64,000 nucleotides of DNA from Escherichia phage KIT01: sequence record AP019521.1; one strand, written 5' to 3'. Of this stretch, positions 840 through 62,110 are shown in pieces (position 1 is the first letter of the stretch; each line of letters opens with the position of its first letter). The notes under the pieces were generated by a model, which was not told where the DNA came from, did no database searches, and was given only the letters and a program-made list of their open reading frames with translations. Position numbers and translations under genes: made by a program.

Positions 840-1562
840 TTGATAATGAATTATAAATCAATATACGAAAAGCTTATTCAACGAGCAGTTAATAGAAATT
901 TAACTACCTATAAAGAACGTCATCACATTATACCACAATGCATGGGTGGGACGGATGACGCTTTAAACTTGGTAGACTTAACACCTGAAGAACATTACTT
1001 GGCTCATCAGTTGTTAGTTAAAATCCATCCAGATAACGCATCGTTAGTCTACGCAGCAAGAATGATGACAGTTAGCTCACCAAAAGCTGATAGGTCTAAA
1101 AATAAATTATTTGGATGGCTTCGTCGTAAGAATTCAGAAGCCCAAAAGGATAAAGAATTCTCTGAAGAAACCAGAAAGAAAATGTCAATTTCTGCTTTAA
1201 AAAAGCCTAGAGTTACCTGTCCACACTGCGGCAAAACTGGATTGGTAGGCAATATGAACAGATGGCATTTCGATAACTGCCCTAAAGGCCCTAATAAAGT
1301 GGACCGCTCTATATCTGAAGAGCAAAAATTAAAAATAAAGAAAGGCCTAGAAAACATGGTCTATAAAATTGTGGAATGTGAATTCTGCGGCCTTTCAGGA
1401 AAATCCTGTGTTATTGCCTCTCATAAAGTTTTTTGTAAGAAAAATCCTAACGGGCGCAAAAAAACAGAAAAGAAGGTAGAATGCCCTCATTGTGGTAAAC
1501 AAGGGAATTCCGGTAATATGAATCGTTGGCATTTCGATAACTGTAAAATGAAGCCTCAATAA
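840..1562 (+). CDS. HNH homing endonuclease (Mob-like) with C-terminal Cys/His zinc-ribbon repeats
   Basis: HHIIPQCMGG...N...EEHYLAHQ HNH motif; two CPHCGK...NRWHFDNC repeats; only plus-strand gene inside a minus-strand early block. Confidence 0.75.
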   Translation: MIMNYKSIYEKLIQRAVNRNLTTYKERHHIIPQCMGGTDDALNLVDLTPEEHYLAHQLLVKIHPDNASLVYAARMMTVSSPKADRSKNKLFGWLRRKNSEAQKDKEFSEETRKKMSISALKKPRVTCPHCGKTGLVGNMNRWHFDNCPKGPNKVDRSISEEQKLKIKKGLENMVYKIVECEFCGLSGKSCVIASHKVFCKKNPNGRKKTEKKVECPHCGKQGNSGNMNRWHFDNCKMKPQ

Positions 1563-1567
1563 GAGGC

Positions 1568-3250
1568 TTATTCCATAATTGTAAATCGACCAACCTTTTT
1601 CATTTGTAAATGCTGACCGTACGCTTGAGGGTCATGGTCCCTGTGGCTGATTATAAAAACATTACTGTCTTCAAGACTATTAAGAATACTTGCAATCGCC
1701 TTAACAGCCTCAGCGTCAACTGCTCCGTCAAAAACTTCATCCAACACTAATGTACTGATGTGGACTCCACTGACTTTTTCAGCAATATCACGCCATGTAA
1801 AAAGTAGTGCGATATCAATACGTGCTTTCTCACCCTGTGAAAATGAAGCATAACTAAAGTCTTCACGTCCACGTGATTTAATCGTCTCATTGAATTCTTC
1901 GTCTAGGGTAAAGACGTAGTCGGCTTCCATAATCTTCAAATAAGAATTTATCTGCTTATTAAAGATAGGAATGTATTTCTTAATAATGGAACCTTTAATA
2001 CCGGTATCCTTCAACATTTCTGTTAGAATTCCACGATGATATTTTTCCATTACCAATGTGGATTTGGTAGAGACGATTTTATCAAGTTCTGCTTGAAGCG
2101 CTGCAATCTCTTCGGCGTTACTTACGAACTCAGCAGCGGCCTGGTCAATTAATACTTTAACCTTTTTAGCTTTCTCTACGGCAGTAATGGCTTGTTGCTT
2201 ATGAGTAGCTATCTGGGATTTAATAGCCAGAGCTTTATTACGTTGTTCGGTTACTTGGTCCTTAATGAGCTTGAGTTCTTGATACTGCTCATTAATCTTA
2301 TCCAAAGATTTTTGAAGCTCAAAGTTCTTATCCTTAATTTTAGTAAGGATATTTCCGTGCTCTTCCAATCCTTGCATACACGTAGGACAGCTGCCGCCAG
2401 TTTCGTATAATTTCACGACCTTAGTAAAGGTTGCCATATCATTCTTGATTGCAAACCCTTTATTGCTCAGGTCACTCATGGAGTTGCTAGGGTCATCATC
2501 GACGATAACATTGAGTAATTCATCAGTTAGTTTTTCTATATTGCCCTTCGCAGTCCTGGCTTCTTTAACGAGCTCGTCATACATTACTTGTAGACGTGCT
2601 GCGTTCTCGCCAGATAATTTACGTTGACGTTCTTCGTTGTCATTATAAATTTTAATCTGTTGGGTAATAGAATCCTGTTTAACGTCGATTACTTGGATTT
2701 GGCTATTAGTCTCACGAATCAAAGATTTGTTCAACTTATCCATATCCGCTAATACAGAAACCTCTAAGAGGTCTTCGACGAGTTTTCTTCTTGCAGGAGT
2801 GGATAGGCCCATAAAAGGGGTATATCCAGCTGTCCCGAGTACGACAATCTGTTTGAAGCTTGTGTAGGACATTCCGATAAGCTGTTCAAATTCTGCTTGG
2901 AAGTCCTTACTGCTGGCAGATTCATCAAGACGTTCACCGCCACAAGAGATTTCAAAAACGTTGGGTTTTTGCCCACGTTTGATGTAGTATTCTTTGCCAT
3001 CATATTCCATCCACAGTTCGACCAAAAGGTCTTTCTTATTACTTGAGTTAATCAACTGCCCTTTCTTAACATCACGAAAAGGCTTACCAAACAGAGCAAA
3101 TGTAACAGCTTCAAGGAACGTAGATTTCCCAGCGCCATTTTTACCGGTGACTAAGGTCTTTTGGACCTTATCAAGTTGGATTGTAATAGGTTGCTGGCCT
3201 ACCGACATAATATTTTTATACGTTACTTTCTTTAACTTAAAAGTCTTCAT
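1568..3250 (-). CDS. 46: recombination endonuclease subunit gp46 (Rad50/SbcC-like ATPase)
   Basis: MKTFKLKKVTYKNIMSVGQ...GKNGAGKST Walker A and overall match to T4 gp46; ATG at 3250 chosen (track start 3262). Confidence 0.9.
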   Translation of the reverse strand: MKTFKLKKVTYKNIMSVGQQPITIQLDKVQKTLVTGKNGAGKSTFLEAVTFALFGKPFRDVKKGQLINSSNKKDLLVELWMEYDGKEYYIKRGQKPNVFEISCGGERLDESASSKDFQAEFEQLIGMSYTSFKQIVVLGTAGYTPFMGLSTPARRKLVEDLLEVSVLADMDKLNKSLIRETNSQIQVIDVKQDSITQQIKIYNDNEERQRKLSGENAARLQVMYDELVKEARTAKGNIEKLTDELLNVIVDDDPSNSMSDLSNKGFAIKNDMATFTKVVKLYETGGSCPTCMQGLEEHGNILTKIKDKNFELQKSLDKINEQYQELKLIKDQVTEQRNKALAIKSQIATHKQQAITAVEKAKKVKVLIDQAAAEFVSNAEEIAALQAELDKIVSTKSTLVMEKYHRGILTEMLKDTGIKGSIIKKYIPIFNKQINSYLKIMEADYVFTLDEEFNETIKSRGREDFSYASFSQGEKARIDIALLFTWRDIAEKVSGVHISTLVLDEVFDGAVDAEAVKAIASILNSLEDSNVFIISHRDHDPQAYGQHLQMKKVGRFTIME

Positions 3251-3500
3251 CGTTATAAGCATCCTTGATGCATGATTCAGCCATATGAATTAATGTTTCT
3301 GGAGTATCATCTACCATTACATTAAAGCTAAATTCCACAGCCCAATCGGTAGCAACATAAACTTTAATAAGCTCGTTGGTATCGCGAGTGCTCACGGCTT
3401 CAAACCAGAACTTAATTGTATTAGGTTGTCCGTCGTCATCAATAACGATACAGTCGTGTTCTAGTTCAAGGCCTGATTTTTTGAATTCATCTAAAGTCAT
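3237..3500 (-). CDS. hypothetical protein (46.1-like)
   Basis: 87-aa ORF coupled between 47 and 46 with ATGA overlap to gp47 stop. Confidence 0.5.
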   Translation of the reverse strand: MTLDEFKKSGLELEHDCIVIDDDGQPNTIKFWFEAVSTRDTNELIKVYVATDWAVEFSFNVMVDDTPETLIHMAESCIKDAYNDEDF

Positions 3501-4519
3501 CGTGTAACCTCATTATAAAGTTGCGCGGCCATAGTCTTAAGGGCTTTAACATCATCTTCAGTGTGGCCGTCAGGAAGGGCATCGATATAATCATACATCA
3601 TATCCAAGAGGGACTTAACTTCATCTTCCTCTTCAGAATCATCGATATCAACACTGTTATCTACCTTAGACACAATACGTAAAGAATGGACAACCTTTTC
3701 AAGCTCTGATTCGAACTTAGTAAGTCCATCATCGATTTTATCGACTATAACACGAACTGCGATATTTGTAAAATCTTTGTAATCGATAGTCGCATTTGGA
3801 TAATGAATCTTACGGTGCCAACAGGTTTCATTGATGATGAAATCCATCTTATGAGTTTCTGTATCGAAAATCCAGAAGCCGCGAGGGTCATTCTCATCAC
3901 CTGCAGTTAGGGTCCAGGGCGTACCAATATACTTAACGTTTGCTGCATCAGAAATAGTGTGGAAGTGGCCTGACCAAACCTGCTTATATCTCTTAAGGAA
4001 ATCAGGTTCTAAACCATGGGATTTCATTCCTTTATAGAAATAGAAACCATTTAATTCCCAGTGACCTATACAGAAATCTGCCGTGGTATTTTTGATATGG
4101 TCCATGATATCAGTCGTGTTTTCTTCACACATCCATGGAATCAAATCAATTTCGGTGCCATCAAAATTAACAGTAGTAGGTTTCTCGTAAACAGTAAAAT
4201 TTTCATACTGAGTAAGAAGTTCAGAAACTGCATTAGGAGTTATGCTATTTTTAAACGTTGCATCATGGTTACCAATTATAACATGGACTTTAATACCTGC
4301 ATCGCTGATAATTTCCACCAGACCACGATTAAATTCCATACATTTATGGGTGATAGCCTTGCGTACATCGAACCAATCACCATATTGAATCCATGTATCA
4401 ATATTGTTTGCTTTAGAATATTCTACAGCCTGTTTAATACCGTTAAGCTGGATTTTCTGAATCCAAGGGTCATCGGCTTTTACTCCGATATGCAAATCAC
4501 CTATATTCAAAATTTTCAT
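3497..4519 (-). CDS. 47: recombination endonuclease subunit gp47 (Mre11/SbcD-like phosphoesterase)
   Basis: MKILNIGDLHIG...GNHD metallophosphatase motifs; upstream partner of gp46. Confidence 0.9.
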   Translation of the reverse strand: MKILNIGDLHIGVKADDPWIQKIQLNGIKQAVEYSKANNIDTWIQYGDWFDVRKAITHKCMEFNRGLVEIISDAGIKVHVIIGNHDATFKNSITPNAVSELLTQYENFTVYEKPTTVNFDGTEIDLIPWMCEENTTDIMDHIKNTTADFCIGHWELNGFYFYKGMKSHGLEPDFLKRYKQVWSGHFHTISDAANVKYIGTPWTLTAGDENDPRGFWIFDTETHKMDFIINETCWHRKIHYPNATIDYKDFTNIAVRVIVDKIDDGLTKFESELEKVVHSLRIVSKVDNSVDIDDSEEEDEVKSLLDMMYDYIDALPDGHTEDDVKALKTMAAQLYNEVTR

Positions 4520-5370
4520 AATCTACCTTTATAATGTATTTCACTATTAAATTCTATCTCAGAAATCATAAAGCTTTTTATGCCGTCATTAGCCCAGATT
4601 TTCTTAGGTCTAGTAATTGTAACTGTAGGCTTAAAAATTTTATAAACCAAATTGTGATAATTACCATCCATAAAACCTTTAGCTAAAGCTATTTCTCTAA
4701 ATTTATACGGTGGCAAAAATCCAGTAGAAATCCAAAGCTCTTTTAATTCTTTTTGAATATCAGGGTCATATATCCCATCGGTCTTTTTCAAGTTTTTCTT
4801 ATGTTCATCGGTTAGAAAACTGCCAAGGACCCAAGATTCAGGTTGTTTTCCTTCTACAAATAATCCTTTATCAACGCCATTGTTATACCACTTCTTACCC
4901 TTATTATGACTAGATGCTTTATAATTAGGAGAACGACCTTCTACGTATCCTTCGGGGACTGTAGGTGCAAAGGTTTGTTCTAATGTAACAGGATTATAGG
5001 AATGAATATATCCTTTGGCATTATGAGAGCCATAAAGAGGGTGTTGCTCTTTAGGTAGCGAAAGCCCAAAGAATCCTTTAGGAGCGGCGACAGCCCTATT
5101 AAAGAATAGAGGATTTTGGGCTGCGTCAGTTCTTAACTGGTACATTCTTTCAGCTTCTAAAGCCTCTTCTCTTGTAGGGTGTTCGCTTACAATACACGAG
5201 TCGAATAATTCAGGATGCTCTAAAAGCTCATTTTTATATATTTCTTTATATGCTTTAGAAAGGACACTCCCGTGATACCCTTTCAAATGCTTCTCCAAAG
5301 TGGTAGACCCTATATAAAACGGTGGAAGCTTAGTCCCGGAATATATTGTCAGGTATGTGATGTATTTCAT
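4516..5370 (-). CDS. putative GIY-YIG-like endonuclease (Seg-like)
   Basis: N-terminal YLTIYSGTKLPPFYIGST...LEKHLKGYH resembles a degenerate GIY-(10)-YIG module; occupies the position of T4 a-gt; weak RBS. Confidence 0.4.
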   Translation of the reverse strand: MKYITYLTIYSGTKLPPFYIGSTTLEKHLKGYHGSVLSKAYKEIYKNELLEHPELFDSCIVSEHPTREEALEAERMYQLRTDAAQNPLFFNRAVAAPKGFFGLSLPKEQHPLYGSHNAKGYIHSYNPVTLEQTFAPTVPEGYVEGRSPNYKASSHNKGKKWYNNGVDKGLFVEGKQPESWVLGSFLTDEHKKNLKKTDGIYDPDIQKELKELWISTGFLPPYKFREIALAKGFMDGNYHNLVYKIFKPTVTITRPKKIWANDGIKSFMISEIEFNSEIHYKGRL

Positions 5371-5396
5371 AGATTTATTTTATCATCCATTCAGAA

Positions 5397-5421
5397 AGCA
5401 AAAAAGGAGCCTAAGCTCCTT
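5397..5421 (-). terminator. rho-independent terminator (hairpin AAGGAGC-CTAA-GCTCCTT plus T-run on minus strand)
   Basis: perfect 7-bp stem at 5404-5421 followed on the minus strand by TTTTGC. Confidence 0.5.
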
Positions 5422-5584
5422 TACCAACTAATACACCATACAGAGGTTCATGAGAAGACCTGAACTTGATTTTCTTATAGGTAATAGTACCTTCGTTTTC
5501 TGCTTTAATACGAGCGGCTTCAAATTGAAGAATCATCTCGTTTTTGTCAGATTTAATCTTATCAAAATCCATCGAATTCGTCAT
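5411..5584 (-). CDS. hypothetical small protein (57 aa)
   Basis: ATG at 5584 preceded by AAGAGG; below ORF-track size cut-off; stop inside terminator hairpin. Confidence 0.35.
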   Translation of the reverse strand: MTNSMDFDKIKSDKNEMILQFEAARIKAENEGTITYKKIKFRSSHEPLYGVLVGKGA

Positions 5585-5642
5585 TCATACGACCTCTTAA
5601 ACTTTTTCGTATTCGTCTTTCATTAGCCACCTGTCCACGTTA

Positions 5643-6138: not shown

Positions 6139-6139
6139 A

Positions 6140-6911: not shown

Positions 6912-6977
6912 TGTTACCTCGGATAACTCAAATCATAGGTCTATTATATCATGGTATTTGAAGACCCTTTTAAAGCA

Positions 6978-7241: not shown

Positions 7242-7504
7242 TGTAGGAATCGGGCTCCTTCCAAGGCATCATCTAGGTTATCGAACTCGTCGACATAATC
7301 AACACCGCCAACTTCGTCCTTCGCATAAAGCCAATACTGTTTAAATTCATATTCAATAATAAAGTGGTCGCCTTCAATTTGAAGAGCCCCATCACCATTA
7401 AATTGAACTGCATAACCTGTAAAGCGGACATCATTCAAGAGTTCTTCTTTCATAGCAATCATTTCCAAGTTTTTATCGTAATTAGAGAGTTTTATTTTAA
7501 TCAT
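7238..7504 (-). CDS. hypothetical protein
   Basis: 88-aa ORF, ATGA overlap with downstream gene. Confidence 0.45.
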   Translation of the reverse strand: MIKIKLSNYDKNLEMIAMKEELLNDVRFTGYAVQFNGDGALQIEGDHFIIEYEFKQYWLYAKDEVGGVDYVDEFDNLDDALEGARFLQ

Positions 7505-7830
7505 TTCGCTGCCTTAACAATTTTCAGGTCAACGAATTTTTTCTTACGTTGGTTTTTCATACGACGGATAGTTTTATCCGTGATTTCACCAGGGGCCCAA
7601 GCTTTAGATTCAACACCAAATGCAGCGACATCGAATTCATCAAGGATATATTGAACCAGGATTTCACGAATACCGTTCTTACCAATTTTCTGGTCTTTAG
7701 AGTGCATGATTGGTAATAGTTCAGCAACCCATTGGTCAAGAACCTGAGGAGTTACAAAACCGGTTTTCATCAGTTCGTTTACTTTATCGAAAGCGAAAGA
7801 GTTCAGTACGTTTTTAATAGCTTGTGACAT
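7501..7830 (-). CDS. hypothetical protein
   Basis: ATG at 7830 preceded by GAGGAAA; track ORF 7501..7926 has an N-terminal extension. Confidence 0.5.
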   Translation of the reverse strand: MSQAIKNVLNSFAFDKVNELMKTGFVTPQVLDQWVAELLPIMHSKDQKIGKNGIREILVQYILDEFDVAAFGVESKAWAPGEITDKTIRRMKNQRKKKFVDLKIVKAAK

Positions 7831-7864
7831 AATAATTTCCTCAGTTTTAAAGTTATAATCCGTA

Positions 7865-7899
7865 GGACCATTATACTCTGGTCCCAAGAGTTTGTAAAC
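7865..7899 (-). promoter_or_regulatory. early sigma70-type promoter with inverted repeat flanking the -10 (PeSL-like)
   Basis: minus strand GTTTAC(7894-7899)-17 nt-GTATAA(7871-7876); GGACCA/TGGTCC arms. Confidence 0.5.
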
Positions 7900-8099
7900 T
7901 ATTTTTGTGCTTTGGCGCCTTTCCAACCTTCATACATCATTCCGGCGGAAATTAACAAAGCACCCGAGCAACTTGAATACTTGTGATTCCAAAACCAGTT
8001 TAGAAAAACTTCGTCATCAATACCTTGAGCTATCATATTTTCAAAGAACTGACGACGAGCTTCAGCAATTCGCTGTGATAATTTAGATTCAGGATTCAT
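7899..8099 (-). CDS. hypothetical protein
   Basis: 66-aa ORF. Confidence 0.4.
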   Translation of the reverse strand: MNPESKLSQRIAEARRQFFENMIAQGIDDEVFLNWFWNHKYSSCSGALLISAGMMYEGWKGAKAQK

Positions 8100-8231
8100 T
8101 TAAATTTTCCAATTGCCATTTTCATCAATGAATTTAACCCAGTCATTTACTGACCACTTGGTTGTATCGCCTTTTGGACTAACATTTAAAGTGTATAGTC
8201 CTTGCTTAAAAAGCATTCGTTTGATATTCAT
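8100..8231 (-). CDS. hypothetical small protein
   Basis: ATG at 8231 preceded by GAGGAAAA; track ORF 8100..8324 overlaps neighbour out of frame. Confidence 0.3.
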   Translation of the reverse strand: MNIKRMLFKQGLYTLNVSPKGDTTKWSVNDWVKFIDENGNWKI

Positions 8232-8238
8232 ATTTTCC

Positions 8239-8532
8239 TCAGCTGTAACGATAACACTCGTTTGATTTACGTTTTGCAACTTGATGAGAAGTATTGTAAT
8301 CAGGTTCATCGTCGTTGTAAACATCTTTTTTCAGCTTTCTCACTTCTTTACGAAGTTGGCGATTCATTTCATTCTTAACTTCAGAGTCAACGCCTCTCAT
8401 ACGTTTCCACTTGTCGGAACGGAAGATATTTTCTTCAACCAAATCCTGACTTACGCCGACCGGTGCTTTACGACGTCCGGAATAATAAAAATCTTTTACA
8501 GACAATTCTTTACGACGAATAGTTTTACCCAT
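8239..8532 (-). CDS. hypothetical basic protein
   Basis: 97-aa Lys/Arg-rich ORF. Confidence 0.45.
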   Translation of the reverse strand: MGKTIRRKELSVKDFYYSGRRKAPVGVSQDLVEENIFRSDKWKRMRGVDSEVKNEMNRQLRKEVRKLKKDVYNDDEPDYNTSHQVAKRKSNECYRYS

Positions 8533-8534
8533 AG

Positions 8535-8789
8535 TTACCTCAGCAGTTTGTATCCAATAAGATTTTTAATGTATTGGACATCTTTGACATCCAAATCTAA
8601 CTTAATATCTTTCAGGCGTTCAGCCAGAGTAAGAAATGTTACACGTTTCCAATTCTTAACAGGGCAGCAATAAGTTTTCGGGCCGTTAGCGATTTCAATA
8701 TTTTTATCAGTGATGGTGAGAAAAATCAGGCGCTCATCATCCAGATTAAGTGTGACGATATTTTTCATTGAATGTAATTTCAGGCTCAT
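8535..8789 (-). CDS. hypothetical protein
   Basis: 84-aa ORF. Confidence 0.45.
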   Translation of the reverse strand: MSLKLHSMKNIVTLNLDDERLIFLTITDKNIEIANGPKTYCCPVKNWKRVTFLTLAERLKDIKLDLDVKDVQYIKNLIGYKLLR

Positions 8790-8968
8790 AATTTGATTTC
8801 CTTAGCTATTGAACAAAACACGCTACGGTCACATACCATCATTGGAATATTTCTATGGTCTAGTACACGATACCATACGTCTGAATCGCTAGCAGCAATT
8901 ACACGAACCGCACGCCCATTTACCAAATAATACTGGTCGGCTTTAATTTCTTTATCTTGGATAGTCAT
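8786..8968 (-). CDS. hypothetical protein
   Basis: 60-aa ORF with GAGGAGAA RBS; first gene after a PeSL-like promoter. Confidence 0.45.
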   Translation of the reverse strand: MTIQDKEIKADQYYLVNGRAVRVIAASDSDVWYRVLDHRNIPMMVCDRSVFCSIAKEIKL

Positions 8969-8974
8969 AATGTT

Positions 8975-9026: not shown

Positions 9027-9027
9027 A

Positions 9028-9345: not shown

Positions 9346-9622
9346 AGGAAATAACTCCTTGGTAGTCCCATGTTTTTAGAACTTCGTCTTCATTAGTTCC
9401 GTATGGGACGTAAACCTGTACAAGAAAACCTGTGTCATCGAAAGAGAAATAAACTGTCGGTTTGATTCCGTGAATCTCTGATAGAGCATAGATGTCTTTA
9501 AGGTCTTCTTCCTTACCGACAAAGAATTCCGGGTTCAGGTCACAGTCATGGAAGTACCAATCATCACCGAACTTGTCCCATGCGGTCCAATTCAAAGCTA
9601 CATATTCTTCAAAACGTTTCAT
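9326..9622 (-). CDS. hypothetical protein
   Basis: 98-aa ORF. Confidence 0.45.
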   Translation of the reverse strand: MKRFEEYVALNWTAWDKFGDDWYFHDCDLNPEFFVGKEEDLKDIYALSEIHGIKPTVYFSFDDTGFLVQVYVPYGTNEDEVLKTWDYQGVISCGPKVN

Positions 9623-9846
9623 TCTTTCACCTTCATCATTTTAGAAATAACACTATGAACAGACTGGATTCGTTTTTCGAACTCAGACGCTTCAAGACCT
9701 TTTTCAGTACTCAGGGCGCCAATAATCACAAACAGCAATCCAAATGGGATGACCAGGATTAAAAGGCACACGATAAACAGGACAAATGTAATATTGGCCA
9801 GGATATCAGAAACAGCATTACGAAATTTGTTCATTAAAGAACCCAC
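9619..9846 (-). CDS. small membrane protein
   Basis: 75 aa with hydrophobic stretch FVLFIVCLLILVIPFGLLFVIIGAL. Confidence 0.45.
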   Translation of the reverse strand: MGSLMNKFRNAVSDILANITFVLFIVCLLILVIPFGLLFVIIGALSTEKGLEASEFEKRIQSVHSVISKMMKVKE

Positions 9847-10650: not shown

Positions 10651-10949
10651 GCGACCTCAAATTCATTATCATCGTTAGTCCAAAAACACCAGAATGCAGA
10701 TTTGGTGCCTTCATACATTTCTTTGGTGTATTCATATACCTTACCATTGAACTCAATAGCAGTCACACCAATGATTTCAGGATTACCCCAGGGAGAAATC
10801 TCCACCTTCAAGATTTTAACTTCAGCACCTTCACAGAGCTTACCGGATTCAAAGCCGCGATTGCCGTTTAATTCAGGCCAGTCAACATAATGGTCAACGG
10901 TTTCTTCAGTAATACGAACAGTTTTACCTTCAAATTCAAATAAATTCAT
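10647..10949 (-). CDS. hypothetical protein
   Basis: 100-aa ORF. Confidence 0.45.
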   Translation of the reverse strand: MNLFEFEGKTVRITEETVDHYVDWPELNGNRGFESGKLCEGAEVKILKVEISPWGNPEIIGVTAIEFNGKVYEYTKEMYEGTKSAFWCFWTNDDNEFEVA

Positions 10950-11238
10950 CAGAATACCTCATCAGAAAAGCGAAGTTGAGCTTCAAGCCAATGGATATAG
11001 TCAGCGGCAGCTTTAATCAAATCGGATTCTAGGTCAGGTAAAGAACCTGAATCCGACAACTCGTAAAGCGAATGTTCAATCAGACGGCCCTTATGACGGC
11101 CAACTTCAATTTTGGTACTCATATCCAAACTCCATATCGATTAAATCATTGTTTGAAGGTTCATTATACTCTATTTCGGAATCATTGTAAACCGGTTCCT
11201 CTGGCTCGGTAGTTTCCCACCGAGCGACATACCATGGC

Positions 11239-11547
11239 TTAACGGTCACACCACCAACTCGATACTTCAAAATCGGGTTCGCCGTGTTCCCAGTACCAAG
11301 GGCCGACTGGGTGCCAATCACCGTGTTCATCTTCTTCAAATTCTTCGGATTCAAGCCCAACGTATTGCCATTGAACTTCATAAGCGGTGCCACCTATTAC
11401 AACGGTGTTCTCGCCATATGGGTGAGCTACAGCAAAGTCTATACCTTCTGCTTTAGCCAGCCAAACCATATATTCATATAGTTTATATTCCAGGTCATCT
11501 TCGGTACCATCACCTAGAAAAATGGTTTGTTCGTTTAATTCAATCAT
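11239..11547 (-). CDS. hypothetical acidic protein
   Basis: 102 aa; ATG at 11547 preceded by GGTGGAG; ATGA coupling to upstream gene. Confidence 0.45.
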   Translation of the reverse strand: MIELNEQTIFLGDGTEDDLEYKLYEYMVWLAKAEGIDFAVAHPYGENTVVIGGTAYEVQWQYVGLESEEFEEDEHGDWHPVGPWYWEHGEPDFEVSSWWCDR

Positions 11548-11892: not shown

Positions 11893-12156
11893 TCATTTGA
11901 AGTATGCTCGCAGTTGGTCAAAGCCGCCAATATGACTTCCATCCGGAGCAAATACTTGAGGCATAGTCAAACCCACCTGAGATTCACGTCCAAGGGCAGC
12001 CAGGAGTTCGGCAATCTTCTCATCATCAAATACACCTTTTTCCGGCATCACGTTAATGAATTCGTAAGGTTGTTTCTTAACATCAAGCAGACGTTTGGCA
12101 TTATCACAGAAAACACAACGGTGAATATTTGAATCATAACCATAAACTTTAAACAT
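11893..12156 (-). CDS. nrdC: thioredoxin/glutaredoxin NrdC
   Basis: 87 aa; MFKVYGYDSNIHRCVFCDNAKRLL...GLTMPQVFAPDGSHIGGFDQL matches T4 NrdC. Confidence 0.85.
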   Translation of the reverse strand: MFKVYGYDSNIHRCVFCDNAKRLLDVKKQPYEFINVMPEKGVFDDEKIAELLAALGRESQVGLTMPQVFAPDGSHIGGFDQLRAYFK

Positions 12157-12157
12157 T

Positions 12158-12394
12158 TTAAATTCCTAATATTTGTTTGAATGCTTCAGAACGGTCGAGT
12201 TCTGTTCCATATTTTTCCATGTGCTCATATTTTAAATTATACACATCAGATAGTATATTATTATACGAACGAGTTAAAGCAGATTTTAAAACTGAATAAC
12301 TGTCTGGGAATTTACCATGCTCTTTATAATAAGCTAGGGTAAGTTCGCGGACTGCCTTATCGGCAGCCTCTACATATTCTTTACGCTTTGCCAT
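12158..12394 (-). CDS. hypothetical protein
   Basis: ATG at 12394 (MAKRKEY...); track ORF 12158..12508 overlaps upstream gene. Confidence 0.4.
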
Positions 12395-12689
12395 TTTCGT
12401 CTCGCTCAAATCGGTGTTTGCAATGGCGGCATTTGTAACGAAGATTACTAGTCTGCCAATGGACCAATTGGACCTGTTCTGTACCGCACTCAGGACAGTT
12501 AGGAACATTCTTAGAAGATTGTTCTCGTCGTGCGACCATAGCCATTACGGCATCCCAATTAACAGGGCTATAATCATCACAGCCATGAATCTTACCAACC
12601 AATTCAGCTTCAACATCCTCGGCTTTAATAAATTTCAATAAACCGGTATTAGATGCCGAAGCAATATCTTCAGCTAAACGTTGTTTCAT
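12381..12689 (-). CDS. zinc-ribbon protein
   Basis: 102 aa with CPECG...CRHCKH Cys pairs. Confidence 0.45.
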
Positions 12690-26329: not shown

Positions 26330-26689
26330 TTAAAGATGGTCTAGTGCTGGGTTATGAGGTTTTTCTGCTTTAGTAGTGTTTTTATGCCAATCTGATTTAG
26401 AAACACGGATGGCATCAGCGCCATAAGAACTCTTAAGGAGACCTTTTTTATTGTACACGCTTATTGAAGTAAGAGAATCACCATTCCATGTAGCATGAAT
26501 GAAGTTAGATTTAGATTTAAGTTCTTTAGCCAAGCTCTGGTTAGTGGCCATGGAAGCAAAGTCTTTACCTGTAACTTTAAAAACTTCAGATGGGTTCAGC
26601 CCTTCTTTAGCCTTAGCCAATTGTTCAGGAGACATAGCTTCGTTAATGCGCTGAGTAGATTCAGTAATAAATTGTTGGTAAGTTTTCAT
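26330..26689 (-). CDS. capsid-targeted internal protein (CTS leader)
   Basis: N-terminus MKTYQQFITE; AAGGAA RBS; cotranscribed with the next CTS gene. Confidence 0.55.
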   Translation of the reverse strand: MKTYQQFITESTQRINEAMSPEQLAKAKEGLNPSEVFKVTGKDFASMATNQSLAKELKSKSNFIHATWNGDSLTSISVYNKKGLLKSSYGADAIRVSKSDWHKNTTKAEKPHNPALDHL

Positions 26690-36079: not shown

Positions 36080-36688
36080 TTATTTACGAGTCTTTTCGAA
36101 CTGTGCTGCGTCACCTGCAAGGCGGCCCGCTTGGCGAAGTTTGTTATTGATTTCTTCGCGCATAGGCTGGGTATACTTAAGGCCTTCAACCGTCAGATAG
36201 AGACGATACAGGTCTGGGGTATCCAGGTTGTTAATGTGTTGACCATTACGAAGAGCGTTGAATTCACGAACAAGGTGTTTAGTTTCAGATTCGATTTCAG
36301 AAACTAAAGAAGCCAGTTGGTTATATTTTTTAACTATAGTGCTGGTGTCAAACTTGATTTTAGATTTAGGAGCTTCTTTTACAGGTTCTGGTTTAGGCGT
36401 CGGTTTCGGTGTTGCAACTTTGGGCTGAGCCGCAGGTTTAGCAACAGGAGCTTTAGCAGGTTTAGCAGCGCCACCAGCTACTATATCTTTAAAAGCTTTG
36501 GAAGCTTTGTAATATTCTTTCTGGCTGCTAGTATCAAAACCATACATATCATAGACGTTTTTAAAGAATTCGGTGGTGGTTTTAGTCCCAGAAATTTTAT
36601 CATAAGCTGCTTGCCACATATCTTTAGTCATGCGGATGCCGGCTTCACTCAGAACGCTTTCGTTCAAAAATTCATTGTAAGTTTTCAT
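36080..36688 (-). CDS. capsid-targeted internal protein with Ala/Pro-rich linker
   Basis: 202 aa; N-terminus MKTYNEFLNE; central AKPAKAPVAKPAAQPKVATPKPTPKPEP; late promoter upstream. Confidence 0.55.
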   Translation of the reverse strand: MKTYNEFLNESVLSEAGIRMTKDMWQAAYDKISGTKTTTEFFKNVYDMYGFDTSSQKEYYKASKAFKDIVAGGAAKPAKAPVAKPAAQPKVATPKPTPKPEPVKEAPKSKIKFDTSTIVKKYNQLASLVSEIESETKHLVREFNALRNGQHINNLDTPDLYRLYLTVEGLKYTQPMREEINNKLRQAGRLAGDAAQFEKTRK

Positions 36689-37756: not shown

Positions 37757-37831
37757 TGGTATCCCGCCCTGGGATCGAACCAGGACCGCAAACTTAGAAG
37801 GATCGTATGCTATCCATTACACCAGCGGGAC
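37757..37831 (-). tRNA. tRNA-Arg (anticodon UCU)
   Basis: hand-folded cloverleaf: acceptor GTCCCGC/GCGGGAT, T-arm CCTGG-TTCGATC-CCAGG, anticodon loop CTTCTAA, encoded ACCA 3' end. Confidence 0.7.
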
Positions 37832-37836
37832 GTAGT

Positions 37837-37913
37837 TGGTGACCCAGACCAGATTTGAACTGGTAACCTTTCCCTTATGAGGGGACTGCTGCTAACCATT
37901 GAGCTACAGGGCC
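37837..37913 (-). tRNA. tRNA with CAU anticodon (Met, or Ile if lysidine-modified)
   Basis: hand-folded: T-arm ACCAG-TTCAAAT-CTGGT, anticodon loop CTCATAA, encoded CCA; 5 nt from tRNA-Arg. Confidence 0.65.
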
Positions 37914-43299: not shown

Positions 43300-43322
43300 T
43301 ATAAATATTAATATTATTTATA
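43300..43322. promoter_or_regulatory. divergent late promoters for genes 53 (plus) and 4 (minus)
   Basis: TATAAATA at 43300-43307 on plus strand and at 43315-43322 on minus strand. Confidence 0.6.
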
Positions 43323-43334: not shown

Positions 43335-43937
43335 ATGCTCTTCTCATTTTTCGATCCTATCGAATACGAATCAAAAACAGTCAAGCCGGATTCGGGCTCA
43401 TTAACCAATACCGATGTACTGAGCGTGCCGATGACTGATATATTTAGAAATTATAAAGAATATTTTGATAAAGTGGCTAAAAATTATACACTAAAGACTT
43501 ATTACATCAACGGGGCCCCTCGTCCAGAAGAATTGGCCAATCAACTTTATGGCAACGTCCAATTATATTGGGTTTTATTGATGTGTAATAATATATACGA
43601 CCCTTATTACGGGTGGATTACAGGTCAAGAAGTTGCATATCAAGCTGCAATCCAAAGATATTCTACCGCAGGCGGTAATCAAGTTCTTTATCATGTTAAT
43701 GAAAAGGGTGAGAAATTCTGGAATCTAGTAAATACTCCGGAAAATCCTTATACTTGGTATGATAAGGGCGATACCGAAAAACGTTATCCTCAATATGAAG
43801 GTCCTTTGGCTGCAGTAGATATTTACGAGGACGCCATTCGTAAAAATGAATATAAGCGCGAAATAAAGATTATAGACCCTAATGACATCGAGTCCTTTGT
43901 TTCGGCATTAATCCGTGAAATGGAAAAGGCACTCTAA
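43335..43937 (+). CDS. 53: baseplate wedge protein gp53
   Basis: 200 aa, position and size of T4 gp53. Confidence 0.8.
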   Translation: MLFSFFDPIEYESKTVKPDSGSLTNTDVLSVPMTDIFRNYKEYFDKVAKNYTLKTYYINGAPRPEELANQLYGNVQLYWVLLMCNNIYDPYYGWITGQEVAYQAAIQRYSTAGGNQVLYHVNEKGEKFWNLVNTPENPYTWYDKGDTEKRYPQYEGPLAAVDIYEDAIRKNEYKREIKIIDPNDIESFVSALIREMEKAL

Positions 43938-44572
43938 TGTTTTATTATGTATATAAAATAACCAATAATATTAACGGCAAATTTTATATCGGGGCGCATA
44001 GTACATCAAATATGGATGATGGATATATGGGCTCAGGTAAATTAATTAAACGTGCCATACTAAAATATGGCATTGAAAATTTCAAAAAAGAAATATTAAA
44101 ATTTGTTGATTCCAAACAAGAAATGTATGAACTTGAAAAGGAACTTGTTGTTCTTAATGAAAACTCATACAATTTAAAACCAGGCGGCTCCGGTGGATTT
44201 TTAAAACATGATAACTTTAAAGGTCGAAAACATAGCCAGAAAACTAAAGATATTATGAGTGCAAATAACTCAGGTAAAAATAATCCCATGTATGGAAAAA
44301 AGCGAGACCAGCATGGAGTAAATGCACCAAATTATGGCAAAAAATGTTCAGAAGAGAAAAAGAAGATTCTTTCTGATAAGCTTAAAAAGCATTTTGAAAA
44401 TGAGCAGACAATAACTAAGAACATGGGGTTTATACCAACGTCGGTTGAAACCCGTTATGTGTCTCGACATATTAAAAAGTTAGGATTTGATTTTTACCAA
44501 TTCAATCGAAATATATGTGAGCATAATATTTCCATAGTTAAAAATATTTTAAAACAGAGGAAAGCGCTATGA
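43937..44572 (+). CDS. GIY-YIG homing endonuclease (Seg-like) inserted between genes 53 and 5
   Basis: YYVYKITNNINGKFYIGAH GIY-YIG module plus DGYMGSGK motif and Lys-rich C-terminal domain. Confidence 0.75.
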   Translation: MFYYVYKITNNINGKFYIGAHSTSNMDDGYMGSGKLIKRAILKYGIENFKKEILKFVDSKQEMYELEKELVVLNENSYNLKPGGSGGFLKHDNFKGRKHSQKTKDIMSANNSGKNNPMYGKKRDQHGVNAPNYGKKCSEEKKKILSDKLKKHFENEQTITKNMGFIPTSVETRYVSRHIKKLGFDFYQFNRNICEHNISIVKNILKQRKAL

Positions 44573-53224: not shown

Positions 53225-53227
53225 TAA

Positions 53228-53250: not shown

Positions 53251-53285
53251 TAATAAATACAGTATATCAATAATGAGGCATACCT

Positions 53286-58148: not shown

Positions 58149-58157
58149 GGGTAAAAA

Positions 58158-59747
58158 ATGATTAACAAATTGGAACTTAGTGAGTTACCATTTGTTGACG
58201 GCGTACCTGATGCTCCTCAAAAGCGTATCCAATGGATACGCGAGGGTGATTGTATGTCTGCAGCAAAAACAAAATACGGCAATGAAGGTAATTTGAACGC
58301 TGCTGCTTTAGGAGTTCAGAAAAACGTTGAAGCTCTTGATGCGAATGATTTGAAAACCGCAGATAAAGTTAACGAACTGGTAGAAAACGTTAATAATATC
58401 AATGATGCCTTAGAAATGGCTACGGATATTTCCGTCATCCAACAAATTGAGAAAAACCGTGTTGATATCGTAGAGCTTAAGAGAGTAGAAGGCGAAACCA
58501 CTACTGGGCTAAACAATTTAACCATAAATTTAGACCACCTAAAAGAAGACGTTGGTTACCATGACCCTTTACAAGATGGCCCATATTTAACTGTACGTGA
58601 AAATATTGTTCTTCTTAAAACCGAAATAGGTCATTATGAAAACCAGGATATAAATGGCAATCCATTGCCTCCTGGTGAAACCAGCGAAGCCACCGGTATG
58701 AAACGTCGCATCATTGATAATACCACTCAATTGGTCGACCATCGTCTTCGCATTGATACCCTTGAAAGGAATTATGAAGATTCTGACGTCGGGCAACTAG
58801 GTATTAAATTAAATGAAATTCGTGCTGAACTTGGGCCTCATTCTGATACTGTAGGTAAACAACCGGCTTATACCCGAATTTCTGTATTAGAAACGGCTGC
58901 AATTAATTTTAATACATCTATTGACGAAATTAAGGCTGATATTGATTTCTCTGGTATGCCTATAAAGGACCGAGTAACTACTTTAGAAAGCAAAACTCTT
59001 ACCCTAGAAAATTCAGTCAACGTTGATTTAAGCCCTCGTGTAACATCAATTGAAACCCAAATAGGTTCTGAATCAACTCCTACTTCTATTAATGGACGTT
59101 TAAGCGGTCTTCGTACTGATGTAAATGACCTTAAAACCATAGTGGGTGTTAGTTCAAGTGATGGCTTACGTTTCCAAGTTACTGATATCAACCGCCGTTT
59201 AGGTAGTGAAGTATCTCCGGCAGCTGGGACCATTAATAAGCGTTTAAATGACGTTATTATCCAAGCAAACCAATCTACTTCATCTATCCAGGATATTCAA
59301 GTAGAAATTGGAAATAACCAATCCGGTATTAAGGGTACTTTACTTAAACTCACCAATAAGGTTGATGGGACAAACCCTAACGGTGCTACTGTAGAAGAAC
59401 GTGGTCTTATTAACGCGGTTACTTCTTTAGAAACCCAGATGTTAGGTAAGTTGAATGATGCCCCTTCCGATGGTAAGCTTTATGCTCGTCGTAATGCTAC
59501 ATGGACCGAAGTTCCTAACGTTTCTACTGAAATAGGGACCGTTAAAGCTGATTTAGTTGTTACCGATGGTAATGTGGCAGCTTTAACTTCTAGAGTTACT
59601 GCAGCAGAAGATAAAATCACTGCATTAGAAACTGAACTTGCTAAACGTCCACCGGTGGCTCCAGTTGCTGATGGACTTCCGTATGTTCTTGTTGATAATG
59701 CATGGGTGTTATTGTCAGATTTTGTGACTTTAAACCCAGCACCATAA
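58158..59747 (+). CDS. wac: fibritin (whisker antigen control) Wac
   Basis: 529-aa coiled coil ending in a foldon-like DGLPYVLVDNAWVLLSDFV. Confidence 0.85.
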   Translation: MINKLELSELPFVDGVPDAPQKRIQWIREGDCMSAAKTKYGNEGNLNAAALGVQKNVEALDANDLKTADKVNELVENVNNINDALEMATDISVIQQIEKNRVDIVELKRVEGETTTGLNNLTINLDHLKEDVGYHDPLQDGPYLTVRENIVLLKTEIGHYENQDINGNPLPPGETSEATGMKRRIIDNTTQLVDHRLRIDTLERNYEDSDVGQLGIKLNEIRAELGPHSDTVGKQPAYTRISVLETAAINFNTSIDEIKADIDFSGMPIKDRVTTLESKTLTLENSVNVDLSPRVTSIETQIGSESTPTSINGRLSGLRTDVNDLKTIVGVSSSDGLRFQVTDINRRLGSEVSPAAGTINKRLNDVIIQANQSTSSIQDIQVEIGNNQSGIKGTLLKLTNKVDGTNPNGATVEERGLINAVTSLETQMLGKLNDAPSDGKLYARRNATWTEVPNVSTEIGTVKADLVVTDGNVAALTSRVTAAEDKITALETELAKRPPVAPVADGLPYVLVDNAWVLLSDFVTLNPAP

Positions 59748-59750
59748 TAA

Positions 59751-59770
59751 AAGGGCTTCGGCCCTTTTTT
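59751..59770 (+). terminator. rho-independent terminator after wac
   Basis: AAGGGC-TTCG-GCCCTT hairpin followed by TTTTTT. Confidence 0.6.
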
Positions 59771-59772
59771 GC

Positions 59773-59780
59773 TATAAATA
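59773..59780 (+). promoter_or_regulatory. late promoter TATAAATA for gene 13
   Basis: exact TATAAATA 22 nt upstream of the gene 13 ATG. Confidence 0.6.
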
Positions 59781-59801
59781 CGGTTATTAGAGGAATAAAC
59801 C

Positions 59802-60737
59802 ATGGCAAGTGAATCATATAACCCTAAGCAACTCAAGGACGCAATCCTGCGCCGCCTGGGTGCACCGATTACGAATATTGAAGTAACTACAGACCAAGTA
59901 TACGATTGCATCCAGCGCGCCCTGGAGCTCTACGGTGAGTATCATTATAACGGCTATAACAAAGGTTATCAGGCTTTTTATATAGGTCATGATGACGAAG
60001 AAAAATTCCGTAACGGCGTATTTGACCTTAAAGGCCGTAATATATTTGCGGTAACACAAATTTTAAGAACTAATGTAGGTTCTTTAACATCTATGGATGG
60101 CCAAGCGACTTATCCATGGTTTACTGATTTTGTATTAGGCCTAGCTGGTATTAATGGTGGTCTTGGAACTTCTTGTAACAGCTTTGGGCCTAATGCCTTC
60201 GGTGCCGACCTTGGGTATTTTACACAATTAATGCAATATCGTTCTATGATGCAAGACCTTTTGGTTCCATTGCCTGATTATTGGTATAACGATGCCACCG
60301 AACAATTGAAGGTAATGGGTAACTTTGTTAAAGGCGATTTTATTGTAATTGAAGTTTATACTCGCTCTTTTAATGGGGTTGATTCTATGGTAGGAAATAC
60401 CGCAGGATATGGATATGCCTCTGGTGGGTGCGACGAAAATGAATGGAGCCCTGGAGCTATTTGGGATAACCCGGCTCGTCGTATTTCAGGTATGAGGGCA
60501 GGTGAAGACCTTGGTTTGCAAGATGGTTCATATAATAACCGCTGGGTCAAAGATTATGCCACGGCATTGGTTAAAGAAGTCAATGGTAATATTTTGGCCA
60601 AACACCAAGGCATGCAACTTGCAGGTGGAACCACCGTAGATGGTATTCGATTGATTGAAGAAGCTCGTTTAGAAAAAGAACGTCTTCGCGAAGAATTAGA
60701 TTTACTCGACCCACCAACACCTATTTTAATTGGATAA
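59802..60737 (+). CDS. 13: neck protein gp13
   Basis: 311 aa, position and size of T4 gp13. Confidence 0.8.
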
Positions 60738-60739
60738 TT

Positions 60740-61513
60740 ATGGCTACTTTCGATTCGAGTTTATTTGCCAAGCTGGAAAATAACACTGGTTATGCTAACA
60801 CGAACGAAACTGAAATAATGAATCCGTTCGTCAACTTCTACAAGCACGAGAATACCCAAACATTGGCTGATGCTTTAGTTGCTGAGTCTATTCAAATGCG
60901 TGGTATTGAGCTTTATTATATACCACGTGAATACGTTAATCCAGACCAGCTATTTGGCGAAGACCTTCAGAACAAATTTACTAAAGCCTGGAAATTTGCA
61001 GGTTATTTGGATTCCTTTGAAGGTTATTCCGGTGACAATACTTATTTCAGTAAGTTCGGTATGATGGTTAATGATGAAGTAACAATCACAATTAACCCTA
61101 ACCTTTTTAAACATCAATGCAATGGCACTGAACCTGTTTCAGGTGATTTGATTTATTTCCCAATGGACAACAGCCTATTCGAAATTAACTGGGTACAACC
61201 TTACGACCCGTTCTATCAAGTAGGAGCTAACGTCCAGCGTCGCATCACCGCTACCAAGTTCATTTACAATGGTGAAGAGCTTCGTCCTGAATTACAGAGA
61301 AATGAAGGTATTAATATTCCTGAGTTTAGTGAGCTTGATTTAATGCCTGTTAAGAATATCGACGGATTGGCTGATATCTCCGACATTCAATATGAAGAGG
61401 TCAATGAGATTAATGCTGAAGCGGCTGAATTCGTACATCCATATGTTGTAATTAATGGGCGAGGAGAGGATGCTCCTCCTACAGCATTTGATGATGCTTT
61501 TTTAGATGATTAA
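60740..61513 (+). CDS. 14: neck protein gp14
   Basis: 257 aa, position and size of T4 gp14. Confidence 0.8.
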
Positions 61514-61522
61514 ATAACTTCT

Positions 61523-62110
61523 ATGATAGAAGAAAAAGTAGGATTATGGCTTGGGGATTTGACAGATGAATATCTGGCGGTGGTCTCCAAGCCACCTAAA
61601 ACAGAATACACCGAAAAACATCATATTCTCCCTAGGTCTTTATTTCCAGAATACGAAAACACGCCGGAAAATATAGTTTCTATAGATGTTTTAGACCATC
61701 TAGAAGCGCATGCAATCTTAGCAAAAACAAAAGACCCTAAAATGATTTTAGCCTTTTGGATTATGTTTAGTAGTTCTGAACGTAGAAATTTAAATTTATC
61801 TGAAGAAGAATTAAAAATAAAATACGAAGAAGCCCGTATAGAAATGAAGAGGGTTAAATCAGCCTGGGGCAAAACTCGTATAGGTGAATTGAATCCATTT
61901 TTTGGTAAACACCACGGAGAGTATGCCAAAAAGAGAGCCAGTGAAACCCACAAAGGCAAAAAGCTTTCAGCAGAACATACCATATCCTTTGGACAAGCCC
62001 AAACAGGTGTACCAAAGAGAAAAGTAGAGTGTCCACATTGCCACAAGATGATAGGATACCATCTTATAAATCGTTGGCATAATGATAATTGTAAAATGAG
62101 AGGTGAGTAA
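61523..62110 (+). CDS. HNH homing endonuclease (Mob-like) inserted between genes 14 and 15
   Basis: EKHHILPRSLF...N...LDHLEAHAIL HNH motif; C-terminal CPHCHK...NRWHNDNC ribbon paralogous to the HNH at 840..1562. Confidence 0.75.
   Translation: MIEEKVGLWLGDLTDEYLAVVSKPPKTEYTEKHHILPRSLFPEYENTPENIVSIDVLDHLEAHAILAKTKDPKMILAFWIMFSSSERRNLNLSEEELKIKYEEARIEMKRVKSAWGKTRIGELNPFFGKHHGEYAKKRASETHKGKKLSAEHTISFGQAQTGVPKRKVECPHCHKMIGYHLINRWHNDNCKMRGE

Follow-up and report, generated by a model that had tools for sequence, protein, structure and literature searches.

Four predicted free-standing Seg- and Mob-family homing endonuclease genes in a T4-type coliphage genome

Among the homing endonuclease genes (HEGs) of bacteriophage T4, relatives of the genes reported here encode the characterised enzymes SegB, SegG and MobE. 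SegB and SegG cleave alleles that lack the HEG, after which repair co-converts the flanking sequence, and MobE introduces a strand-specific nick into nrdB of phage T2 and is inherited at high frequency (PMC2330249, PMC2790892, PMC2988022). Here we describe four genes of this kind, HEG1 to HEG4, in a 64,000-nucleotide stretch of the genome of Escherichia phage KIT01 (sequence record AP019521.1), which we refer to in its entirety as the window. HEG1 separates gene 45.2 from gene 46, HEG2 lies directly upstream of gene 47, HEG3 separates gene 53 from gene 5, and HEG4 separates gene 14 from gene 15. We consider it highly probable that these are four independent, functional and free-standing HEGs, of which HEG1 and HEG4 belong to the Mob-type HNH enzymes and HEG2 and HEG3 to the Seg-type GIY-YIG enzymes, with function predicted from the comparisons presented below. 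Gene integrity, family membership, sporadic distribution, exact insertion junctions, linked flanking patches, one inter-genus transfer and one loss are all shown by the sequence comparisons. A first-pass annotation made from the DNA letters had grouped the genes into a single feature extending from 840 to 62110. They are in fact four separate loci, but its four homing endonuclease open reading frames (ORFs) are all present where it had placed them, and the neighbouring genes that it named (the gene 45 cluster and 46, 47, 53 and 5, 14 and 15) are likewise as it described.

Family membership and catalytic motifs

All four proteins match PHROG families of phage homing endonucleases at E-values far beyond chance (Table 1), and each was compared by BLASTP with the full set of 15 Seg, Mob and I-Tev proteins encoded in the T4 record. 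The N-terminal ~120 amino acids of HEG1 share 46-49% identity with the N-termini of T4 MobE, MobB and MobD (E 2e-29 for MobE and 1e-28 for MobB), and HEG1 has in common with these proteins an MNY start, an E-x-HHIIP...NLV-LT-x-EH-x-AH motif and a free-standing, intercistronic setting. Its C-terminus matches I-TevIII (E 3e-8), the similarity between the HEG1 fingers and the two zinc fingers of I-TevIII amounting to 33% over 82 amino acids. A scan for the pattern C-x2-C-x(11-12)-H-x3-C detects a single such finger in HEG4 and three in HEG1. Of these three, the first and third are near-duplicates (CPHCGK.G..GNMNRWHFDNC), and it is the second and third that align with both fingers of the I-TevIII remnant of T4. 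HEG1 differs from T4 mobE in having three fingers and in its site, which is 45.2/46 rather than nrdA/nrdB. The second Mob-type protein, HEG4, is 39% identical to T4 MobE (E 5e-10) and MobC (E 3e-9). HEG1 and HEG4 had initially been taken for a paralogous HNH pair sharing a C-terminal zinc motif that is duplicated in HEG1. A common family and a finger in both proteins were borne out, but the two share only 24% identity (E 1e-8), each is nearer to the T4 Mob proteins than to the other, and HEG1 possesses three fingers instead of two; on these alignments they belong to a common family without being recent paralogues. The start of HEG1 also required revision from a TTG at 840 to the ATG at 846 (MNY...), which is most likely the true start since T4 MobB-E and all annotated orthologues begin in this way, and an AAGGA sequence lies ~9 nt 5' of this codon.

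HEG3 is the only one of the four to pass Pfam's curated thresholds, which it does for GIY-YIG (24.3 bits against a cut-off of 22.6), SegE_GIY-YIG (27.0 against 25) and NUMOD3 (47.9 against 20.4; E 1e-12), in agreement with its earlier description as a clear GIY-YIG gene. The catalytic-domain matches of HEG1, HEG2 and HEG4, including those to HNH models, all lie below the cut-off. HEG3 keeps every column that is invariant across aligned T4 SegA-SegE and I-TevI, including Y6, Y17, G19 and N79. Its closest T4 relative is SegB, with which it shares a GIY-YIG plus NUMOD3 architecture and 57% identity over the N-terminal 113 amino acids, followed by SegC, SegD and SegE. It differs from SegB in its C-terminal ~80 amino acids, which are unrelated, and in its site, which is 53/5 as opposed to the tRNA cluster for SegB or 5.1/5.3 for SegC.

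For HEG2, two other classifications have to be weighed, namely that it is an HNH endonuclease, as its orthologues are called in phrog_10820 and in several RefSeq records, or that it is a degenerate, non-catalytic remnant of a GIY-YIG enzyme. Its Pfam GIY-YIG match (E 0.021) falls under the cut-off, and searches of PDB sequences with the single sequence and with a family profile returned nothing meaningful, as did a search with the single sequence of HEG1. Nonetheless, we find both classifications scarcely credible. HEG2 contains no HH...N...H motif, the Pfam scan assigns it to no HNH family and a fold search with its model returned only GIY-YIG and helix-turn-helix (HTH) folds. The family comprises 255 database relatives, and across 32 diverse members fourteen residues are invariant (Y6, T8, Y10, G12, P16, Y19, G21, G34, S38, E48, F56, A70, E74 and N91), every one of which is kept in the window protein; Y6, Y19, E74 and N91 correspond in position to Y6, Y17, E75 and N90 of I-TevI. 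In a profile-profile comparison, the family matched an alignment of Seg proteins and I-TevI with 98% probability (E 1e-13), with the YIG, GYHGS/GYMGSG, Glu and Asn positions aligned. An AlphaFold2 model of HEG2 has a mean predicted local distance difference test score (pLDDT) of 85.5, exceeding 90 across most of the first 90 residues, and its best fold match is the catalytic domain of I-TevI, followed by other GIY-YIG nucleases, while its C-terminal helices match HTH domains of the Myb/homeodomain type. Because the invariant residues are kept and both the profile and the fold point to Seg proteins and I-TevI, we assign HEG2 to the GIY-YIG class and not to HNH. Judged by sequence and model, it is a member of a conserved SegG-like GIY-YIG subfamily and is not degenerate, so that the first-pass annotation was right about its class but not about its decay, and the 'HNH endonuclease' label carried by its relatives in RefSeq and PHROG is wrong.

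BLASTP matches of HEG2 to T4 proteins are weak (E 5e-6 for SegG, 2e-4 for SegE), with SegG, which a passage of PMC2988022 citing Liu et al. 2003 describes as an active endonuclease, being the closest. HEG2 and SegG have in common an atypical first motif (YLTIY...PPFYIGS and WFTF...PPYYYIGS, respectively), 46% identity around the catalytic Glu/Asn region despite very low overall similarity, a free-standing organisation and a position adjoining a gene of DNA metabolism. They differ in that HEG2 belongs to a separate large subfamily and lies upstream of gene 47 rather than at 32/59, and the window protein is a long form in which the catalytic domain (~amino acids 1-100) is joined to an extra helical, HTH-like module at the C-terminus.

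A scan with Rfam at the gathering threshold found no group I intron in the window, its sole matches being two tRNAs, and we therefore regard all four HEGs as free-standing, as first proposed; all of the flanking ORFs are full length when compared with HEG-less alleles. An intron-encoded endonuclease of the I-TevI/II/III type was considered for each gene and discarded, given that no intron model matched and that all four ORFs are intercistronic.

Ratios of nonsynonymous to synonymous substitution rates (dN/dS; NG86) range from 0.02 to 0.19 over all HEG comparisons, which include orthologues in other genera that are 61-70% identical. Against close carriers the ratio is 0.02-0.08 for HEG1, 0.04 for HEG2, 0.09 for HEG3 (IME540) and 0.05 for HEG4 (005), and against other-genus orthologues it is 0.16 for HEG1, 0.14 for HEG2 and 0.09 for HEG4. 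Ratios this low indicate that the proteins are maintained by purifying selection and argue for the predicted activity.

Distribution, junctions and linked flanks

The first 20 kb of the window share ~94% identity across ~93% of their length with Dhakavirus (JS98-like, T4-type) coliphages, with Bp7, MX01 and IME08 as top matches, and gene order throughout is T4-like, running rpbA, 45.2, 46, 47, 55, nrdC, tk, e, tRNAs, 57, 1, 3, 2 and 4 on the minus strand and then 53, 5, 6-12, wac and 13-16 on the plus strand. None of the four HEG sites is occupied in T4. In the T4 record, 45.2 and 46 are 55 bp apart with nothing between them, only 47.1 lies upstream of gene 47, there is an overlap between 53 and 5, and a 41-bp spacer without a HEG separates 14 from 15; the nearest homing genes are mobB, which lies between a-gt and a-gt.2 in the series 47, 47.1, a-gt, mobB, a-gt.2, and segC, between 5.1 and 5.3. 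The earlier statement that the positions differ from the seg and mob sites of T4 thus stands, but the sites themselves are filled in Tequatrovirus, Tegunavirus and Pseudotevenvirus. An orthologue 64% identical to HEG1, SHGT_097 of the Tequatrovirus Shigella phage vb_GEC_SH_GT, has the same 45.2/46 site and orientation, and in the Tequatrovirus ECO4 a short form of HEG2 with 64% identity directly precedes gene 47. Orthologues of HEG4 from two other genera occupy the 14/15 site in the same orientation, namely g163 of the Tegunavirus Yersinia phage phiR1-RT ('MobE mobile endonuclease', 71% protein identity) and a protein of the Pseudotevenvirus RB43 (51%). Across genera, each of the HEG1, HEG2 and HEG4 lineages is tied to its own site, and these sites are not new.

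We next consider the distribution of the genes, which was scored by megablast searches in which each HEG was extended by 400 bp on either side, GenBank and RefSeq duplicates being counted separately. HEG1 is present in 8 of 54 matching records (MX01, Bp7, 04086, IME281 and, as a divergent allele, FB), full-length HEG2 in 4 of 95 (LQ5, SHP1 and 005; 47.1 fills the slot in most others), HEG3 in 5 of 55 Dhakavirus records and HEG4 in 3 of 61 (ABTNLsp5 and 005). No Dhakavirus record holds more than two of the four. Each HEG is therefore a presence/absence polymorphism among Dhakaviruses. Comparison of the junctions with insert-less relatives, which the first-pass annotation had suggested, yielded exact insert boundaries (Table 1), and its proposal of recent mobility is strongly supported by what we found: the same genes recur at the same sites only sporadically, with mosaic flanks and intact motifs, and HEG3 lies in a tract identical to one in another genus while Bp7 bears a loss scar.

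The HEG1 insert sits precisely between the gene 46 stop codon and the 45.2 start codon, which overlap (ATGA) in empty alleles, and it gives both neighbours new terminal codons (TVME becomes TIME and MSDF becomes MASNF). The box TATAAATA in this cassette is rare in the 64 kb, with three copies on the plus strand and five on the minus strand, and other nearby copies precede genes 53 and 4. Because this rare box lies shortly ahead of HEG1, the gene very likely has its own late promoter and would be transcribed opposite to its early-gene neighbours, a point on which it differs from T4 mobE, which is promoterless (PMC2790892). HEG1 carriers share 98% identity over the last 300 nt of gene 46, a stretch in which HEG-less Dhakaviruses match them at only 77-79% (89-90% at the protein level), whereas over the 900 nt before it all compared phages are 93-96% identical; FB has a third allele of this patch alongside a divergent HEG1 C-terminus. 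The patch is the likely location of the predicted HEG1 target site and of the polymorphisms that would confer immunity. Two Dhakavirus copies of HEG1 show essentially no difference from that of the window and are already annotated in GenBank: MX01 ORF54 (99.6% protein identity) and Bp7 EpBp7_0078 (98.7%), both named 'putative homing endonuclease', occupy the same site with the linked gene 46 patch.

HEG2 occupies the position of 47.1 and ends in an overlap with the gene 47 start codon (ATGA). A scan for sigma-70 promoters and terminators gave no excess over shuffled sequence, its sole addition being the terminator-like hairpin upstream of HEG2. The widespread form of the protein is a short one of 205 amino acids, found in QL01, IME08, IME540 and NC-G as well as in Tequatrovirus and fitting the length of the PHROG profile. 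It differs from the long form by the C-terminal helical module of ~100 amino acids (window 4516-4876 against 9516-9625 of the compared short-form segment), which in the long form is predicted to be HTH-like and is weakly similar to the C-terminus of SegA. The N-terminal domains of the two forms are 97% identical, and divergence extends from codon ~165 on into gene 47; 005 has in addition a 96-bp in-frame deletion in HEG2. Accompanying the long form is a patch that covers the first 400 nt of gene 47, in which LQ5, 005 and Bp7 are 96-99% identical to the window but all other Dhakaviruses only ~69% (68% as protein), a divergence of T4 level, whereas the remainder of the gene is 94-96% identical. 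A Tequatrovirus source, from which the gene 46 and 47 patches would have come together with the HEG, was considered and rejected, as the patches are 66-72% identical to T4, GT and ECO4 and so no closer to them than the native alleles are. Bp7 lacks precisely the 826 bp between the two copies of the direct repeat ATGTATTTCA and retains the 3' end of HEG2 with the linked gene 47 patch, and on this alignment the gap is the scar of a HEG2 loss. A target-site duplication was rejected as an explanation of the repeat, since the HEG2 ORF contains both copies and the stop-codon end of HEG2 is retained in Bp7.

HEG3 is inserted seamlessly at the TAATG overlap of genes 53 and 5. Its start overlaps the gene 53 stop (TAATG), its own stop overlaps the gene 5 start (ATGA), and its terminal codons (RKAL-stop) resemble the end of gp53 (EKAL-stop), by which the ribosome-binding context of gene 5 is recreated; transcription is presumably from the late promoter of gene 53 (TATAAATA at 43300). 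It is also the rarest of the four, with a full-length relative in only 8 phage records of the collection, and in Gaprivervirus it occurs in only 3 of ~38 records. One of these, P479, contains the 663-nt tract of the window without a single difference, even though the flanks of this tract in genes 53 and 5 share only 63-86% identity with P479. By comparison, the Dhakaviruses FB and IME540 have flanks nearly identical to those of the window and a different HEG3 allele, 74-96% identical at the nucleotide level, which is intact in IME540 (88% protein identity) and frameshifted in FB. Because positions 43903-43917 of the tract carry bases common to the HEG-less Gaprivervirus DK-13 and not to Dhakaviruses, we infer that the cassette probably entered from a Gaprivervirus-type donor together with ~37 nt of co-converted gene 53. 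P479 also has two further annotated mobile or homing endonuclease ORFs flanking gene 2 (142-801 at 3/2 and 1622-2269 at 2/4, in coordinates of the compared segment), sites at which the Dhakaviruses examined have none; one of the two is weakly similar to the start of HEG3 (74% over 168 nt of DNA).

HEG4, whose protein is 100% identical to that of ABTNLsp5, stands in place of a 25-bp hairpin with a T-run that is found in empty 14/15 spacers, and the Shine-Dalgarno sequence of gene 15 is embedded in its 3' end. Consistent differences between filled and empty alleles are limited to the first five codons of gene 15. At the neighbouring 13/14 junction, MX01 (10888-11514 of the compared segment) and vB_EcoM_005 (3076-3702) have a different 'putative endonuclease' ORF of ~208 amino acids that the window lacks (junction ~60737-60740), making 13-14-15 a region of two adjacent HEG sites that are filled independently.

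This distribution could also be read as that of inactive relics, left in patches by ordinary recombination and differential loss from a HEG-rich ancestor with no homing involved. Loss and decay certainly occur, as seen in the clean HEG2 deletion of Bp7, the frameshifted HEG3 of FB and the in-frame deletion in HEG2 of 005, and T4 itself possesses defunct HEGs in mobA and I-TevIII. We nevertheless judge this explanation very improbable: none of the four window copies is truncated or lacks a catalytic residue that is invariant in its family, dN/dS stays low even against other-genus orthologues, and a Gaprivervirus-identical tract between far more divergent flanks represents a gain and not a retained ancestral state. 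Moreover, no HEGs are listed for JS98 and JS10, the oldest sequenced Dhakaviruses (Petrov et al. 2010, PMC2993671, Table 5).

Table 1. Positions of the four predicted HEGs and of associated features in the window
Feature	Position	Strand	Basis or remark
HEG1, Mob-type HNH homing endonuclease, 238 aa	846..1562	+	phrog_655, E 7e-69
HEG1 HH-N-H motif	921-1007	+	HHIIPQCMGGTDDALNLVDLTPEEHYLAH; aligned with T4 MobB-E; intact
HEG1 CCHC zinc fingers 1, 2 and 3	1218-1280, 1377-1436, 1482-1544	+	regular-expression scan
HEG1 insertion, 774 bp	793..1566		junction alignments against HEG-less Dhakaviruses QL01, JS98 and 005
TATAAATA, T4 late-promoter consensus	802..809	+	37 nt 5' of HEG1 ATG, within the inserted cassette
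Hairpin AAGCCTC-AATAA-GAGGCTT	1551..1569		read from sequence; spans the convergent stop codons of HEG1 and gene 46
Mosaic patch, last ~300 nt of gene 46, co-inherited with HEG1	1567..1866	-	identity comparison
Mosaic patch, first ~400 nt of gene 47, co-inherited with long HEG2	4117..4519	-	identity comparison
HEG2, SegG-like GIY-YIG homing endonuclease, 284 aa (long form)	4516..5370	-	PHROG, E 8e-83
10-bp direct repeat ATGTATTTCA, two copies	4534..4543 and 5360..5369		junction alignment with Bp7
Intrinsic-terminator-like hairpin with T-run, between a-gt.2 and HEG2	5403..5422	-	just upstream of HEG2; also in HEG2-less phages
HEG3 transfer tract, 663 nt: final 37 nt of gene 53 plus almost the whole of HEG3	43900..44562	+	100% identical to Gaprivervirus P479
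HEG3, SegB-like GIY-YIG + NUMOD3 homing endonuclease, 211 aa	43937..44572	+	PHROG, E 5e-49
HEG4, Mob-type HNH homing endonuclease, 195 aa	61523..62110	+	phrog_655, E 8e-39
HEG4 HNH motif	61619-61711	+	HHILPRSLFPEYENTPENIVSIDVLDHLEAH; aligned with T4 MobB-E; intact
HEG4 CCHC zinc finger (one)	62030-62092	+	regular-expression scan
HEG4-linked substitutions, first five codons of gene 15	62110..62126	+	TTC GGT CAC TTT, against TTT GGA CAT TGG in empty alleles

Alignment of the whole window to MX01 found no further HEGs, the other insertions and deletions being internal-head-protein genes with MKTYQEF-type leaders and small ORFs. Two ORFs on the minus strand, at 26330-26689 and 36080-36688, start MKTYQQF... 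and MKTYNEF..., resembling the capsid-targeting leader of T4 internal head proteins, and both sit in segments missing from MX01, so that internal-protein genes form another presence/absence class in the window. The tRNA region (37757-37913) has only two tRNA genes, Arg-TCT and Met-CAT, compared with eight in T4, and is without a segB-like gene. A segment of ~209 bp with gene 46.1, between 46 and 46.2 (window ~3250), is present in Bp7, FB, QL01, JS98 and LQ5 and missing from the window, MX01, IME281, IME540 and 005. In FB, an unannotated ORF of 231 amino acids that may be a mobile gene (11954-12649 of the compared segment) overlaps the start of gene 55, a place filled by small 55.x ORFs in the window and in other Dhakaviruses. 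Finally, the whisker gene wac (fibritin) is polymorphic in length at 59597/59598, with that of MX01 573 bp longer than that of the window and that of IME281 shorter too.

Predicted homing and competing explanations

Based on the characterised T4 enzymes SegB, SegG and MobE, we infer enzymatic activity, target sites and the direction of transfer for the four window genes as follows. During co-infection with a HEG-less relative, the enzyme would cut or nick the empty allele near the insertion point, and homologous recombination in the recipient would then mend the break, with the HEG-carrying genome serving as template. Repair would copy both the HEG and its variable flank into the recipient, a co-conversion that is also seen as marker exclusion, and the carrier would itself be immune, its target being destroyed by the insertion and by the substitutions linked to it. 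HEG1 is predicted to target the 3' end of gene 46 (last 300 nt linked), long HEG2 the 5' end of gene 47 (first 400 nt linked), HEG3 the 53/5 junction (with the final ~20-37 nt of gene 53 linked) and HEG4 the 14/15 spacer with its hairpin plus the first codons of gene 15. Expression would be late, with HEG1 read from its own TATAAATA promoter against its early-gene neighbours, and HEG3 and HEG4 riding on late structural-gene transcripts in a manner that preserves the translational signals of the downstream genes.

Several points weigh against this reading. Our literature search found no paper that characterises these four proteins or close orthologues, biochemically or genetically. The targets are drawn solely from the clustering of HEG-linked divergence, and because SegG cuts at a distance from its own insertion site, the patches in the flanking genes may overstate or misplace them. 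The mosaic patches could also have arisen by ordinary homologous recombination independent of HEG cleavage. Neither a Shine-Dalgarno sequence nor a promoter of its own can be recognised for HEG4. In addition, two of the comparison genomes, Bp7 and 005, seem to be of low quality, which may affect fine details. Gene 46 of Bp7 is annotated in two pieces (7304-8804 of the compared segment), and genes 46, 13 and 14 of 005 have gaps of ~100 bp or are fragmented; these irregularities may be sequencing or assembly errors, and fine details taken from either genome call for caution.

An alternative account of why the genes persist holds that they are kept mainly for the benefit of the phage, through marker exclusion or local recombination and amplification, and are domesticated tools instead of purely selfish elements. 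Purifying selection on them is strong and persists across genera, and the genes adjoin the recombination and repair genes 46 and 47 as well as structural genes, whose alleles they drag along. T4 HEGs have been linked to marker exclusion (PMC2988022), and a passage of PMC13096335 links SegB to the amplification of anti-defence genes. Yet each HEG occurs in a small minority of very similar phages and is readily lost, which fits a cycle of gain and loss better than it fits a fixed beneficial gene, and we regard predominant phage benefit as somewhat unlikely. Nothing in the sequence separates benefit from selfish drive, however, and the two views are not mutually exclusive.

Returning to the homing model, the loci of HEG1 and HEG2 display a common pattern. 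Between FB and the window, the zinc-finger region of HEG1 varies together with the last 300 nt of gene 46, and between the short and long forms of HEG2, the C-terminal module varies together with the first 400 nt of gene 47, while in both cases the N-terminal nuclease domain is 95-99% identical. It is conceivable, though in our estimation unlikely, that the variable unit at these two sites is the C-terminal DNA-binding module plus the adjoining patch of the target gene, such that allelic HEGs with different specificities compete and module and immunity patch are exchanged as a pair.

Implications for T-even phages

Overall, the four HEGs are ordinary members of the Seg and Mob families. They represent textbook T-even biology and do not constitute a new type of system, and GenBank already lists near-identical genes as putative homing endonucleases. 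Their practical value is modest: for each of the four sites, a filled and an empty natural allele are now available with exact boundaries, making target-site mapping of these Seg and Mob lineages straightforward. The analysis also corrects the widespread 'HNH endonuclease' label of the HEG2 family, and it reveals the essential recombination genes 46 and 47 as mosaics whose foreign segments travel with HEGs. HEG3 provides a clean case, at the level of sequence, of the transfer of a free-standing HEG across the boundary between two coliphage genera, accompanied by only ~37 nt of co-converted flank. A 2010 review of T4 genomes considered convincing evidence for movement between phage clusters to be lacking, a remark that concerned intron-encoded HEGs (PMC2993671). 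This inter-genus tract and the co-variation of a HEG C-terminal module with a target-gene patch at two sites are the most interesting by-products of the work. If modules and patches are indeed exchanged as pairs, then, together with the HEG3 tract, the window would capture, in nature, a turnover of HEG against HEG that is still under way across genera.

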